Of a DNA stretch of 43,922 nucleotides, positions 16,756 through 43,922 are shown piece by piece. The stretch is from a virus (Duplodnaviria; Heunggongvirae; Uroviricota; Caudoviricetes): the IMG/VR virus record IMGVR_UViG_3300045988_002593, positions 1 to 43,922 of that record; one strand, given 5' to 3'. How positions within the stretch are numbered: the first letter of the stretch is position 1; each line of letters starts with the position of its first letter. The translations under genes were made by a program, and so were the position numbers. The notes under the pieces are model-generated. The model was not told the origin of the DNA and made no database searches. It saw only the letters and a program-made list of their open reading frames with translations.

Positions 16756-16793
16756 GCTTACTTCCTCGTGTTTAGGATTTGTCTTATAGTAGC

Positions 16794-39992: not shown

Positions 39993-40178
39993 ATGTTTAA
40001 GAAGGGTCAGTTGGTTAAAACAAAACGCGGCGGACAGTACGTAATAGTTACCAAGAATGAGGATGAATATAGTACCGCTGTAGACGTATGGGGTCTTGTA
40101 CGAAAGAAACATGGTTACGCTTTCAGAGATAATTTAACACTCATCGGCAACAATTTTAAATTCAAAGGGGTGAAGTGA
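39993..40178 (+). CDS. Hypothetical early protein
   Basis: ORF track, start moved to ATG 39993 with a GAGGAG RBS 9 nt upstream. Confidence 0.5.
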   Translation: MFKKGQLVKTKRGGQYVIVTKNEDEYSTAVDVWGLVRKKHGYAFRDNLTLIGNNFKFKGVK

Positions 40179-40360
40179 TGCAAGAATTAATTTACGACGT
40201 ATATGTAGGAGGAAAATTTAGCTATTCAACGAGAAGCAGAGGTGAGGCGTTTAACCATTGCTGTGCATTAACGAAGTTAGGCTTCAACGCGGAATTTAAA
40301 TCCAGAACGGCGTCGAATCATGATGCTCGTGCCGACGACTCTGAGGGAGGTTGCCGTTAA
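40178..40360 (+). CDS. Hypothetical early protein
   Basis: ATG overlaps the upstream stop (TGATG). Confidence 0.45.
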   Translation: MQELIYDVYVGGKFSYSTRSRGEAFNHCCALTKLGFNAEFKSRTASNHDARADDSEGGCR

Positions 40361-40515
40361 TGAAAATTCGAATAACTGACCGCAGGCTTATAGATTTCGG
40401 TATCTCGGTAGGTGATGTTTTTCTGGCGTTCAGCAGCAACCATTATGGTTTTATGATTGAGTACAAAGGGTCATTATTGTTCGTGTATCGGGATGAATGC
40501 GAGGTTCTGGTATGA
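40360..40515 (+). CDS. Hypothetical small protein (51 aa)
   Basis: TAATG and ATGA overlaps with neighbours; below the ORF-track cut-off. Confidence 0.35.
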   Translation: MKIRITDRRLIDFGISVGDVFLAFSSNHYGFMIEYKGSLLFVYRDECEVLV

Positions 40516-40685
40516 GAGAAGCATTCGAACGGTGGGCCATCGTCGAGGGTCTGCCGGTTAATAAGGGTTCGAAGAAAGAGTACCTGAACGTTAAGACGCG
40601 TCTCGCGTGGCGGGCGTGGAAAGCTGGTGTGCAAGCAAGGGCGGGTATAACAGGTGGTGTAACAGGTCAAAAGGTTACTAATTGA
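40512..40685 (+). CDS. Hypothetical early protein
   Basis: ORF track, start at ATG 40512; followed by two hairpins (about 40697-40760). Confidence 0.45.
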   Translation: MREAFERWAIVEGLPVNKGSKKEYLNVKTRLAWRAWKAGVQARAGITGGVTGQKVTN

Positions 40686-40821
40686 CTGAGTGACTTACGC
40701 TGCTACACAGCAGCGTACAACTTTAGCTTAGTGTCGTCAAAAGGCGACACTTGCACGAAACGCAACAATCGAAGCGACTATTGCAGGAGATGCAACAATA
40801 ACAGACACCAATAAAATTTAC

Positions 40822-40850
40822 TTGCACACTGGGATAGAATAGTCTACTAT
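40822..40850 (+). promoter_or_regulatory. Promoter, TTGCAC-17-TACTATTCA class
   Basis: -35 TTGCAC, 17-bp spacer with TAGAAT, -10 TACTAT, 30 nt upstream of the ATG at 40881 (RBS GAGGAGAGG). Confidence 0.5.
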
Positions 40851-40880
40851 TCATTTACACAAACGAGAGGAGAGGCAGAG

Positions 40881-41030
40881 ATGGTTACTTTGATGATTAT
40901 GGAGTTTGAAAACAGCGCAGCAACTTACCGTGAGATGACTATGGCGCAGGCATATCACCTGGCCTCAAACGGCAACTTCTACAAGGCTCAAATCATCAAT
41001 GAGTTCGGGGTAATTGACTATGAATTTTAG
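40881..41030 (+). CDS. Hypothetical small protein (49 aa)
   Basis: Strong RBS; directly downstream of a promoter; stop overlaps the next gene start. Confidence 0.4.
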   Translation: MVTLMIMEFENSAATYREMTMAQAYHLASNGNFYKAQIINEFGVIDYEF

Positions 41031-41292
41031 CAGCTACACCGTGACTGTTGATTTTGAGGGGCTGGAGTTGCCCCTCCCTAACAACTACAGGTATATAACT
41101 CGCGACCGTTTCGGGTTTATTCAGGGGTGGAGGAACAAACCGACAGACACTGAGTTCGGGATGTCGGGTGGAGAAGAGTTGCCGATCACGTTCGGGCATC
41201 AGAGCAGCAATGAAGAGCTTAAAACGGTGATTCGTAAGTATCGCCGCCGCGGTAACACCGGGCTTATAGCAATAACAGGTGCTGTTGAATAA
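41020..41292 (+). CDS. Hypothetical protein
   Basis: ORF track, start at ATG 41020. Confidence 0.5.
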   Translation: MNFSSYTVTVDFEGLELPLPNNYRYITRDRFGFIQGWRNKPTDTEFGMSGGEELPITFGHQSSNEELKTVIRKYRRRGNTGLIAITGAVE

Positions 41293-41309
41293 GTGAGGGG
41301 AGAGACAGA

Positions 41310-41924
41310 GTGAACAATAAAAACGAAGTATTCGAGTACCTGATCGACCAGCTACGGCAGCAGGTAAGCAGTAACCTGTACAAGCAGCAGTGCGAAGACC
41401 TGGCACATGAGGTACTGTCACTTAAGAATCAGTTACGTGATGCTTCGGCGCTGGTGGCGGAGTTGCAGGAAGACAACATTAAGAAATCCGACCATATATC
41501 ACATCTGACCGGGCAATTGTCCGCGTATCGCAATGATGCGTTGCGCTTTCAAGCGCAAGTCGGGGACCTGGTAAAACGACTGGCTAAGGCCACTGGTGAC
41601 GAGTCTGTGCAGATTAAGGAGTTGACGCTCGCGCTAGATAGTTTAGATAACGAGGTTATGTGTCTTCGTTCAATCGTTTACCTGGACCCTAAAGGCGCGA
41701 TTGGGTACATCCGGCGGGCAAATAGTGCAATGACTGACACCCTGCGCCGCCAATACCTTAGCAAAGCACTTGAGGAACTCGGATGTAAGGATGCGCCAGA
41801 ACAATCCGGTTGCCGAAAGGAAGACGCTCAACTACCTGTATGCTCGTGCATTCCGGCTCACTGCGGAACTTACTACGGCAACACTGTAGTCTGTGATAAC
41901 TGTGGTGGAGCTATAACCGAATGA
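41310..41924 (+). CDS. Hypothetical coiled-coil protein with C-terminal Cys-rich zinc-finger-like region
   Basis: GTG start with GAGGGGA RBS; heptad-rich N-terminal half; C-terminal CSCIPAHCG...CDNCGG; central domain paralogous to 95-295. Confidence 0.55.
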   Translation: MNNKNEVFEYLIDQLRQQVSSNLYKQQCEDLAHEVLSLKNQLRDASALVAELQEDNIKKSDHISHLTGQLSAYRNDALRFQAQVGDLVKRLAKATGDESVQIKELTLALDSLDNEVMCLRSIVYLDPKGAIGYIRRANSAMTDTLRRQYLSKALEELGCKDAPEQSGCRKEDAQLPVCSCIPAHCGTYYGNTVVCDNCGGAITE

Positions 41925-42124
41925 CCAGCATCTTATTTATCTGGGTATTGTCGGCAGGCCAGATGCAACTAGCGGCATCAGAAACGTTTTACTCGATGGA
42001 GGCGTGCCAGTCAGCGGCACGCGCCGCAGAGAACGCGCACTTCCTGTTTCAGGGCGACAAGCCCAACGATTCAGAGGTACGAGCTATCTGCTCACCCAAG
42101 CGACTTGGTAAACAGGAGAAATAA
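41921..42124 (+). CDS. Hypothetical secreted/membrane protein
   Basis: N-terminal hydrophobic segment resembling a signal peptide; ATGA overlap with the upstream gene. Confidence 0.45.
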   Translation: MTSILFIWVLSAGQMQLAASETFYSMEACQSAARAAENAHFLFQGDKPNDSEVRAICSPKRLGKQEK

Positions 42125-42125
42125 C

Positions 42126-42308
42126 ATGGTACAGAGATATACCTACGACCAGATATTCGGGTTTACTCCCGATGTTGAGGGCGTGTTAGTGCTTTACGAA
42201 GATTACGCGAAACTCGAAGCTGAGTTACAGAAATACAAGGGCCAGTTCCCGGATTACGTTGAGTGTGCGAACTGCGGGTCAGTTACACATGTGGAGGGGG
42301 TGGAGTGA
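42126..42308 (+). CDS. Hypothetical protein with C-terminal CxxC
   Basis: ORF track, start at ATG 42126 with an AGGAG RBS. Confidence 0.45.
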   Translation: MVQRYTYDQIFGFTPDVEGVLVLYEDYAKLEAELQKYKGQFPDYVECANCGSVTHVEGVE

Positions 42309-42631
42309 TGTCTCTTGCAACTGACATCCTGAAACTAAGCGGCCTTGCGCCGCTGTCACCGAGAGCGAAGACACGTATACACAAGCGTCGCCGTAACGTG
42401 CTGTACCCATAGATACAAGAACGGCGTAAAGCTATCCGCGCCTGTGGATTCCAGAACGGAAAGGCCGTGAATCTAGGAGAGTTTAAAACACAGGAACGCG
42501 CGGCAATCGCTAATCGGTTATTTAATTACTGGAAATCGCTCGGATACGATGATATTCCGACTAAACCGCAGAGACGACAATACATCTGGCGTCATAAATA
42601 AACCGTTATTAAGATAATTCCTAACCGTGCT

Positions 42632-42671
42632 ATCCTCCAGTTACTGCATACTTAATACGCACCTGGAGGAT
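42632..42671 (+). promoter_or_regulatory. RBS-sequestering stem-loop upstream of the holin gene
   Basis: 9-bp stem ATCCTCCAG/CTGGAGGAT with 22-nt loop; the 3' arm contains the holin SD (GGAGGA); holin start is TTG at 42677. Confidence 0.45.
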
Positions 42672-42676
42672 TCATC

Positions 42677-42985
42677 TTGGATAAATTTACTGAAACAGTG
42701 ACGGGGTGGCTTCTCGCTGCCGCACTGGTCGGTGGGGTAATAGGCTTACGGCAACACAAAGCCACTATTACCGACCCTGTCGATGCTCTCTGTTTTCTCG
42801 CCACTGGCTTTGCGTGCGCCGTATTCGGTGCGCCTCTCGCCGCTCAATGGTTCGGTATCGCAGGTGAACGCGAAATAGCGGGCCTTGGATTCATCATTGC
42901 TATTCTCTGGATGCCAATTTATTCCCGTCTCTCTGGCATTGTCGCCGGAGAATACATCGCACGTCGCGGAGGTGGTAATGAATGA
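42677..42985 (+). CDS. Holin (three predicted TM helices)
   Basis: Three hydrophobic segments and a charged C-terminus; directly upstream of a second membrane protein and the endolysin. Confidence 0.6.
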   Translation: MDKFTETVTGWLLAAALVGGVIGLRQHKATITDPVDALCFLATGFACAVFGAPLAAQWFGIAGEREIAGLGFIIAILWMPIYSRLSGIVAGEYIARRGGGNE

Positions 42986-43250
42986 GTTATTCTGGTTTGG
43001 TGGTATGCTCGCAATCGGGAGCACATCGCTGTTTAACGTATACCACCCCAGCGTAGATGATGGGCTGTTCGGGCGTGTGCTTTATATTCTGACTGCTATT
43101 GTCTGCGCCGCCGGATGTATCCACCTGTTACAGGGCAGCATGTCACCTACGCTGCCTGAGACATTAATCACATTAGTTGCGCTGCGTCAGATTCGTCAGG
43201 CGTGGCTGTCGTACGGAGGACATAAGCGTGTCTCGAAACATTTCAGATAA
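42978..43250 (+). CDS. Second holin-like membrane protein (possible antiholin or lysis regulator)
   Basis: Two hydrophobic helices; ATG overlaps the holin stop; overlaps the endolysin start. Confidence 0.45.
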   Translation: MNELFWFGGMLAIGSTSLFNVYHPSVDDGLFGRVLYILTAIVCAAGCIHLLQGSMSPTLPETLITLVALRQIRQAWLSYGGHKRVSKHFR

Positions 43251-43716
43251 TGGGTTGCATTTCACCGCAGCGTTTGAGGGGTTCCGCGGAACTGCGTATC
43301 GTGCTACGCCAAATGAGAAGTACCTGACTATTGGGTACGGTCATTATGGGCCAGACGTAACGCCAGGCAAGACCATCACACCGGGACAAGGACTCCTGTT
43401 ACTGAATCGTGATATGGCTAAGGCCGTAGCTGCGGTTGACGCAGCAGCACACCATTCATTGACACAGGCACAGTTCGATGCAGTGTGCGACCTGGTATAC
43501 AACGCAGGTGCTGGTGTGATTGCTGCTACTACCGGCACGGGTAAGGCACTGCGTTCTGGTGATATTGCAACGCTGCGGGCTAAGCTGGCGCTGTTCATCA
43601 ACCAGAACGGCAAACCGTTACTAGGCCTGCGTCGCCGTACCGCCGGTCGTCTGGCGCTGTTCGACGGTAAACCGTGGCAGGAGGCTGAGGCTATCGGGCG
43701 CGCGGTGAAAGGTTGA
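43228..43716 (+). CDS. Endolysin, lysozyme (glycoside hydrolase family 24-like)
   Basis: ISDNGLHFTAAFEGFRG...YLTIGYGH and C-terminal LRRRTAGRLALF, which I recall from P22/lambda-type lysozymes; GTG start assumed. Confidence 0.8.
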   Translation: MSRNISDNGLHFTAAFEGFRGTAYRATPNEKYLTIGYGHYGPDVTPGKTITPGQGLLLLNRDMAKAVAAVDAAAHHSLTQAQFDAVCDLVYNAGAGVIAATTGTGKALRSGDIATLRAKLALFINQNGKPLLGLRRRTAGRLALFDGKPWQEAEAIGRAVKG

Positions 43717-43780
43717 CACATAAGACTAATCCGACGATACTTAAATCACCTCCTGCTCCATCCCTCTGCTCTCCAGTTTT

Positions 43781-43812
43781 ATCCCGGCCCTGACCCAGCC
43801 GGGATTTTTTTT
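43781..43812 (+). terminator. Strong intrinsic terminator after the lysis cassette
   Basis: ATCCCGGC/GCCGGGAT stem with 9-nt loop followed by eight T; the T-tract runs into the terminal overlap. Confidence 0.7.
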
Positions 43813-43922
43813 ATCTATTTTCTGTGATGACTAGTTGACTATTATCCTCGACCCTATTATATTTACTTCATCGACAACGAGAACGGAGTAGAGAGAAATG
43901 GGCAACGTATCGACGATAGAAA
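43804..43922. repeat. Terminal overlap copy, identical to 1-119
   Basis: Exact repeat of window bases 1-119. Confidence 0.9.

Follow-up and report, generated by a model that had tools for sequence, protein, structure and literature searches.

In bacteriophage T4, the Shine-Dalgarno (SD) sequence and start of gene e (lysozyme) are sequestered on long transcripts, and a promoter in the DNA of the 5' strand of the structure yields short transcripts that are translated; for gene e this transcript-selective arrangement has been demonstrated, and it has been inferred for the leaders of soc, 49, and I-TevI (PMC3014915). In phage lambda, a stem-loop upstream of the holin gene S lies over its GGGGG SD, governs ribosome access to it, and influences when lysis occurs; initiation is thereby divided between two starts, Met1 and Met3, which give antiholin and holin (bioRxiv 10.1101/2025.05.14.654169). 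Here, we analyze a hairpin immediately ahead of a holin gene in a 43,922-nt stretch of viral DNA (hereafter, the window). No description of this element was found in the searchable literature.

The locus resembles T4 gene e in that, by its in silico anatomy, a lysis gene is situated downstream of earlier-transcribed genes and the SD is base-paired in a hairpin on modeled transcripts coming from upstream. The parallel may extend to the promoter, as the DNA of the 5' strand bears a promoter-like signature whose predicted start falls 3' of the anti-SD. It differs from gene e in the type of the signature, which is sigma-70-like (an extended −10, or −35 and −10 boxes) and not the late promoter TATAAATA used with gp55, the latter being absent from the 5' arm in the window. 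Further, the regulated gene is a holin here and an endolysin in T4, with no sequence homology between the two. As in lambda S, a stem-loop directly upstream covers the SD of a class-I-type holin gene, and several relatives of the locus carry a GGGG(G) SD inside the stem. Unlike lambda S, the gene lacks a Met-Lys-Met motif and has a single start, TTG, with the TAA at 42653 closing the reading frame upstream. Homology to lambda S was not detected, as the protein matches no Pfam family at E up to 0.01; it belongs to PHROG 2359.

By sequence matches, the window genome belongs to Kagunavirus, a genus of the subfamily Guernseyvirinae. Matches to the 1.6 kb surrounding the hairpin were found in 214 phage records, the best being those of Escherichia phages of this genus, with 88–98% identity. 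The identification of the gene as a holin, made earlier in a sequence-only reading of this DNA, was confirmed by the profile match, and the gene is the first of a cassette comprising a holin, a second holin or antiholin, and an endolysin:

42677–42985, + strand: holin gene, 102 aa, TTG start; PHROG 2359, E = 1.6e-29, profile aligned from residue 1.
42978–43250, + strand: second holin/antiholin gene, 90 aa, ATG start, overlapping the 3' end of the first holin gene; PHROG 2508 (holin), E = 2.9e-33.
43228–43716, + strand: endolysin gene, the last of the cassette, GTG start; phage lysozyme family, Pfam PF00959 (Phage_lysozyme), E = 5e-27.
43781–43815, + strand: intrinsic-terminator-like hairpin and T-run at the end of the lysis cassette; −13.8 kcal/mol, z = −2.67.

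The same gene order is annotated in phages Bas72, phiEc3, and Sciku. The last of these, a related phage with 72 genes and an expert annotation (Center for Phage Technology), was used as the reference set for gene-wide ranks of SD stems and start codons. Its homologue of the holin is annotated as "antiholin/holin class I" with three predicted transmembrane domains, a terminator is annotated after the cassette at the same relative place as the 43781–43815 hairpin, and the cassette forms the end of a small-gene operon running rightward from a divergent intergenic region. When positions 40000–43922 were scanned for promoters and terminators, no terminator was found between the holin and the same-strand genes upstream. 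The holin thus closes an operon of small genes with no terminator shielding it, and premature holin synthesis must therefore be prevented by some device. The matter is of consequence, as holin accumulation sets the lysis time and hence burst size and fitness. The hairpin, with covariation across the subfamily and its metagenomic relatives, is a concrete candidate for such a device. The gene directly upstream of the holin is syntenic in nearly all clades; its product has the N-terminus MSLATDIL and weak AP2-like DNA-binding matches. The stop codon of the upstream reading frame (42599–42601) is 31 nt ahead of the 5' arm, which rules out translational coupling to it in the window.

The hairpin consists of the following parts:

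42632–42640, + strand: 5' arm ATCCTCCAG, holding the anti-SD CCUCC; identified by sequence, fold, conservation, and covariation.
42641–42662, + strand: 22-nt loop, inside which UGC (42645–42647) and GCA (42659–42661) pair as a 3-bp helix; identified by fold.
42663–42671, + strand: 3' arm CTGGAGGAT, holding the SD GGAGGA (42665–42670); unchanged in 38 of 38 loci and annotated as the ribosome-binding site in Sciku.

The two arms, ATCCTCCAG and CTGGAGGAT, are perfect 9-bp reverse complements, as had been noticed from the sequence, and the SD within the 3' arm is separated from the TTG codon (42677–42679) by the 6-nt spacer TTCATC. The fold check proposed at the same time bore this out: in RNAfold predictions for 42620–42690 the stem is formed, with −17.8 kcal/mol and z = −3.35, and none of 200 shuffled sequences was as stable. 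In the modeled read-through RNA the pairing probability of the SD is approximately 1.0. Perfect 9-bp inverted repeats with loops of at most 30 nt are not rare at the genome scale (seven in the window, compared with 5.1 ± 3.0 in dinucleotide shuffles), and hence the significance of the hairpin rests on its position and conservation. In only four of the 72 Sciku genes is the SD window covered by a stem of at least 8 bp, with the holin in joint first place for length. By SD pairing probability it ranks third of 72, the two higher-ranked genes having their SD inside the preceding coding sequence. Rfam 15 covariance models, including those of RNA thermometers, gave no match at E up to 1 in 42300–43100, and a search of the window for further occurrences of the element or its sub-motifs, aimed at a repeated phage-specific promoter or operator, yielded only chance-level 8–11-mers. 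A role as an RNase III site was dismissed, as such a site calls for a longer stem than this one.

The TTG at 42677 is the genuine start of the holin. It is present in 38 of 38 Kagunavirus loci, the PHROG 2359 alignment begins at residue 1, and the start and ribosome-binding site annotated in Sciku are the same. An in-frame TAA at 42653–42655 closes the frame upstream, so that TTG is the first possible start of the open reading frame 42677–42985. The next in-frame start downstream is the GTG at 42698, which is codon 8 and has no SD. Further, the N-terminus MDK aligns with MDDK or MDNK of distant homologues that use GTG or ATG at the equivalent codon. In Sciku, TTG starts three of 72 genes, and non-ATG codons (TTG or GTG) start eight of 72. 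Non-ATG starts are found for the holins of about one-half of the lineages considered here, and are much more common than among phage genes generally. TTG itself is restricted to Kagunavirus and the metagenomic loci L095 and L096. GTG is used in Jerseyvirus and in L097–99, L106, L110, L121, and L125, and ATG in the L053 clade, L100–105, L107–109, L111–119, and others. Given these GTG and ATG starts in relatives, a weak start is no obligatory partner of the hairpin. The sequence-only reading had combined a weak start with an occluded ribosome-binding site. Its second half was borne out in silico and strengthened, the hairpin being under selection with cross-clade covariation (see below), whereas the weak start proved not to be conserved alongside it.

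Conservation within the genus was assessed in 37 IMG/VR loci and the window (38 in total). Pairwise identity is 98.6% for the segment from the hairpin to the start codon, 84.6% for the holin coding sequence, and 65% for its third codon positions. Of 121 GenBank phage records, 110 match the 96-nt element with an identity of 95% or more; for the 441-nt holin region, 110 of 121 records have 80–90% identity. The conserved block (approximately 42607–42702) begins just past the upstream stop codon, is far more conserved than its flanks, and is retained even where the neighboring upstream gene is a different one, encoding an HslV-like peptidase. Synonymous sites of the first eight holin codons are unchanged in the Kagunavirus loci. 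Within Kagunavirus the loop is near-invariant, but L095 and the other clades have entirely different ones. The hairpin alone does not explain why this loop and codons 2–8 vary so little in the genus. The stem is invariant in the genus, which makes a covariation test inside it impossible; the rare variants observed are compatible with the stem: A42639G in L038 creates a G-U pair, and the stem grows to 11 bp in L004 and 14 bp in L028 through changes in the loop.

Across clades, the Kagunavirus holin is only 22–30% identical to its homologues in Jerseyvirus and several metagenomic clades. Distant homologues were collected from a protein database and a metagenome scan, and the DNA upstream of them was compared; a profile-based scan of viral contigs added no further clades. 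In the main clades, the longest stem within the 62 nt preceding the start holds in its 3' arm the only SD-like run (GGAG, GGGG(G), or GGAGG). Stems in the relatives have 10–14 bp, and their arms differ between clades:

Jerseyvirus: 5' arm AAUCUCCGAAGG, 3' arm CUUUCGGAGAUU.
L053 clade: 5' arm CUCCGUAUGG, 3' arm CUAUACGGAG.
L097 type: 5' arm UGCCCCUGAUU, 3' arm AAUCAGGGGUA.
L100 type: 5' arm GCCCCCGA, 3' arm UCGGGGGU.
L095: the Kagunavirus arm retained with G-U pairs, loop unrelated.

The L103/L104 clade does not fit and has an additional in-frame ATG upstream and CCUCC downstream of its GGGG.

Plain MAFFT alignment across clades shifted the L053 clade one column out of register, and for this reason a covariance model was used. 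It was built from 18 representatives and found the element ahead of 31 and then 49 holin genes. Covariance-model alignments are fitted to the structure, and therefore controls with slid partners are given alongside each value. In alignment A5, 86.8% of cells are paired (33–59% for slid partners), and the covariation score is 0.50 (at most 0.21 for slid partners). In the larger alignment A10, the respective values are 81.1% (34–56%) and 0.46 (at most 0.18). In both alignments eight of ten pairs are changed on both sides, and none of 500 column shuffles reached the observed values. Nine rows of A10 contain unpaired cells at several pairs; we ascribe these to L053-type rows placed out of register, as perfect 8–10-bp stems are detected there de novo. 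G-U and U-G pairs are frequent in the cross-clade stems. As G-U pairs correspond to A-C mismatches in the DNA or on the other strand, the constraint acts on the + strand RNA. Judged from these sequence comparisons, the hairpin is a selected RNA structure rather than a chance repeat, and the property conserved is occlusion of the holin SD.

The 5' arm is associated with a second conserved signal, listed here together with a motif immediately upstream of it:

42628–42636, + strand: extended −10 promoter-like element TG-C-TATCCT, with the hexamer 42631–42636 overlapping the 5' arm; consensus match only.
42611–42624, + strand: palindrome-like motif AAGATAATTCCTAA (of the form GGAT-nn-ATCC followed by TAA), near-invariant in the Kagunavirus loci.

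The TG and TATCCT are unchanged in 38 of 38 Kagunavirus loci, and the "n" position between them (42630, C or G) is among the few polymorphic sites. The extended −10 pattern recurs at the equivalent place as TGGTATCCT in L095, TG[T/C]TAATCT in Jerseyvirus, and TG[A/C]TAA[T/C]CT in the L053 clade. In the L096–L125 clades, the near-invariant hexamers TTGC(A/G)G and TA(T/C)ACT are 18 nt apart. The second, the −10 box, adjoins the 5' arm (TATACT followed by GCCCC), and the 7–8 nt ahead of it vary freely. Sigma-70 promoters carry either a −35 box or a TG extension, as the clades here do. Every main clade has a putative sigma-70-type promoter signature next to or overlapping the 5' arm. The Kagunavirus candidate TATCCT matches the consensus in four of six positions and has no −35 box; its conservation is partly explained by the hairpin, because the pyrimidine half doubles as the anti-SD. 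The same cannot be said of the L053 clade, where TAAT is outside the stem and pairing cannot account for its conservation. The generic promoter and terminator scan of 40000–43922 found nothing at the element; it requires a −35 hexamer and is blind to extended −10 promoters. GATAAT (42613–42618), within the palindrome, was considered as a −10 box and dismissed, as it is not conserved as such elsewhere (GATTAA, GATAAA).

With transcription starts placed 7 nt after the −10 hexamer, the predicted start in the window is A42643, in the loop, and in every clade it is 3' of the anti-SD, with leaders of 26–34 nt. The calculated cost of opening the SD in the window is 11.4 kcal/mol in read-through RNA vs. 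2.7 kcal/mol in RNA from the predicted start; the means for 20 representatives are 10.7 and 3.5 kcal/mol, respectively. The predicted short transcripts retain some SD pairing, with a probability of 0.4–0.99, in weak structures. No transcription-start mapping in Guernseyvirinae was found in the literature, and the sole Kagunavirus transcriptome paper found is at gene level, with no 5'-end resolution and no mention of the holin.

A step common to all readings of the element as a leader structure is that a cis-acting hairpin in the holin mRNA would block access of the 30S subunit to the SD. We favor, with moderate confidence, a transcript-selective mechanism of the T4 gene e type, in which read-through transcripts would be silent and promoter-proximal transcripts lacking the 5' arm would be translated. 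In RNA entering from the same-strand upstream genes, AUCCUCCAG (42632–42640) would pair with CUGGAGGAU (42663–42671), and the paired arms would keep the 30S subunit off GGAGGA, leaving the holin cistron silent. The DNA for the 5' strand also bears the sigma-70-type extended −10 signature TGnTATCCT (42628–42636), and transcripts from this embedded candidate promoter, starting at about A42643, would lack the anti-SD strand and hence present an open SD on a translatable holin mRNA. The weak TTG start may keep the output of the short transcripts modest, and through the hairpin, transcription of the upstream operon would leave the lysis clock unaffected. The L103/L104 clade counts against this model.

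If the embedded promoter is real, the strategy of T4 gene e would have arisen independently in siphophages relying on the host sigma-70, and for a holin instead of an endolysin. Phages of Kagunavirus and Jerseyvirus are widely isolated with therapy and biocontrol in view, and mutations in the arms or a change of TTG to ATG may provide an engineering handle on lysis timing. The element also defines an RNA motif that is absent from Rfam.

The main rival to the transcript-selective mechanism is a constitutive throttle, which we regard as a realistic possibility with a lesser claim to belief. Here, both arms would be present on every holin mRNA, and rare opening combined with the TTG start would lead to low, constant synthesis and a long, precise latent period. 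A stable SD-occluding stem conserved with covariation is what such a device would look like. The excess of non-ATG holin starts over their frequency among Sciku genes suggests selection for low initiation, and experiments on lambda S demonstrate that SD strength and leader stem-loops shift the lysis time (bioRxiv 10.1101/2025.05.14.654169). However, the throttle offers no explanation for the conservation, in every main clade, of −35 and −10-like hexamers or of TGn-TAnnCT precisely at the 5' arm, next to spacer bases that vary. Besides, although the SD GGAGGA is near-consensus, an opening cost of 11–14 kcal/mol would nearly abolish translation rather than tune it. The proposal of the sequence-only reading that holin translation is held low fares accordingly: the SD-blocking hairpin stands, but an always-low output overlooks the conserved sigma-70-like signature over the 5' arm.

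A more far-reaching interpretation, which we consider unlikely, is that the whole block of approximately 42607–42702 functions as a dedicated control region comparable to lambda pR', constituting a new late-gene switch of Guernseyvirinae. The product of the MSLATDIL gene could then bind GGAT-nn-ATCC in the promoter spacer or −35 region, and polymerase starting from approximately 42643 could make the holin the first gene of a long rightward unit, extending across the lysis genes and then, beyond two terminators, into the genes for terminase and structural proteins. The lysis, terminase, and structural genes are all on the + strand. The hairpin could act in this case as a translational insulator here and additionally as a terminator in Jerseyvirus. 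Irrespective of this reading, the palindrome-like motif would span roughly −32 to −19 in the predicted promoter, and related forms (GATTAATCC, GATAAATCC, and GATTATTCC) precede the holin hairpin in all main clades. The window holds no second good copy of it, and neither GATAATTCCTAA nor GGATnnATCC is enriched there; the single match with two mismatches (16772–16783) lacks the hairpin context.

That the hairpin is a terminator, attenuator, or mRNA-stability element of the upstream operon, its overlap with the SD being incidental, appears decidedly unlikely. Intrinsic terminators with overlapping promoters occur at operon boundaries, and the Jerseyvirus hairpin resembles them, as it is followed by UUUUUUAUU, with a U-tract as in a bona fide intrinsic terminator, and overlaps TGnTAATCT. 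In contrast, the stem in the window is followed by UUCAUCUUGG, which has no U-tract, termination is not predicted, and the scan found no terminator in 42600–42700; the U-tract is also absent in the L053 and L096–L125 clades. Moreover, the feature conserved by all clades is the SD in the 3' arm, which termination would not need.

We consider it very improbable that selection acts on a DNA-level element instead of an RNA structure, with the block serving as a binding site for a protein or as a recombination "linker" where modules meet. The conservation of the block 42607–42702 far above its flanks, loop and synonymous sites included, would suit such an element, as would the mosaic junctions at the block, namely, the HslV-like peptidase gene inserted upstream and the exchanged holins of VT223 and of an LSPA1-like phage. 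However, the arms change between clades and yet pair, often with G-U pairs, and the loop is not conserved between clades. A linker role could coexist with the RNA role and may add to the extreme conservation, but it does not explain the covariation.

Finally, an RNA thermometer melting at the body temperature of the host to license lysis would have the architecture of a simple SD-sequestering hairpin, and the bacterial hosts are enteric, but the perfect 9-bp stem with five G-C pairs, its −17.8 kcal/mol at 37 °C, the 10–14-bp stems of the relatives, the lack of an Rfam match at E up to 1 in 42300–43100, and the absence of mismatches and weak pairs such as known thermometers typically have make this exceedingly improbable.

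Outside the 9-bp stem, the minimum-free-energy fold has additional weak outer pairs that reach the start codon; they are not relied on here, because they involve the polymorphic position 42624. Counting against the favored mechanism, in the same fold GUG (42627–42629), whose UG is the TG of the candidate promoter (42628–42629), can pair with CAU (42673–42675).

A palindrome-like motif, AAGATAATTCCTAA in the window (42611-42624), lies upstream of the hairpin that masks the Shine-Dalgarno sequence of the holin gene, and is conserved in all main clades. At other loci (L096-L132 and L043-L057), its counterpart upstream of the holin hairpin is GGATTAATCC, GATTATTCC, or GATAAATCC, plus TAA. In Kagunavirus and in the metagenomic L097-type clade, the motif is situated at about -31 to -23 relative to the predicted sigma-70-type promoter at the 5' arm of the hairpin, and it is found approximately 25 nt farther upstream in Jerseyvirus and in the metagenomic L053-type clade. 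Only one copy is present in the window genome. The motif could be a regulator-binding site.

The gene immediately 5' of the holin control region, whose product has the N-terminus MSLATDIL..., is syntenic in nearly all clades, and is assigned to PHROG 9632 in the window. Its locations are as follows.

Upstream gene preceding the holin control region
Window 42308-42601, PHROG 9632 gene directly before the element
L096 610-936, syntenic gene
L099 567-944, syntenic gene
L100 556-933, syntenic gene
L106 608-934, syntenic gene
L108 603-944, syntenic gene
L028 893-1258, syntenic gene

This gene is a candidate for a DNA-binding regulator. Its matches to the AP2 domain are weak, the top one (E = 1.6e-5) falling under Pfam's threshold. 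Some 20-40 residues present in the other clades, the conserved PGV motif among them, are missing from the Kagunavirus version. The PHROG 9632 product of phage Bas72 is 97 aa long; in the window, an in-frame TAG (42410-42412), where Bas72 has GAG, splits the gene into two ORFs and is either a nonsense mutation or a sequencing error. In many Kagunaviruses, e.g., phiEc3 (L002, 1799-2239), an inserted gene for an HslV-like peptidase separates the upstream gene from the holin leader, and the TAA stop codon of the peptidase gene is located within the conserved motif (GGA-TAA-TTCC). The window has no such gene.

Within the holin gene itself, synonymous sites of the first eight codons (window 42680-42702) are invariant in 38 loci, and variation begins at 42703. 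This pattern indicates that the start of the coding sequence is constrained at the nucleotide level, either by accessibility of the initiation region or by another structure. Start codons may also have alternatives: L103 and L104 (960-1020) contain an additional in-frame ATG six codons 5' of the start (MGYPPDM...), with the string GGTATCCTCC downstream of the GGGG run and ahead of the ATG, and an in-frame TTG directly precedes the ATG in the L105, L113, and L116 types (L105, L113, L116-L119, L123). Both codons could serve as alternative starts.

Two loci are reciprocal mosaics. In Salmonella phage VT223 (L040, 1691-1935), a Kagunavirus-type element with approximately the initial 25 codons of a holin is separated by unrelated sequence from a downstream Jerseyvirus-type element and its own holin. 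The LSPA1-like locus L028 (1295-1506) has a Jerseyvirus-type element with a 32-codon holin stub followed by a Kagunavirus-type element and a complete holin. Thus, after a holin swap, short ORFs that encode a single transmembrane domain are left downstream of a leader that looks functional. In phage vB-Eco-KMB36 (L041, about 820-930), an apparent tandem duplication of ~55 nt in the holin gene (CGGCGCACCTCTAGCGGCTCAATGGTTCGGCATTACCGGGGAGCGTGAAATCGCT, twice) would explain the shortened holin annotated there (252 nt).

Downstream of the lysis cassette, the window contains a terminator-like hairpin (43781-43815, including a T8 run) and, 3' of it, a near-consensus sigma-70 promoter (TTGACT-17-TATATT, 43835-43863), which presumably drives the next small-gene cluster.
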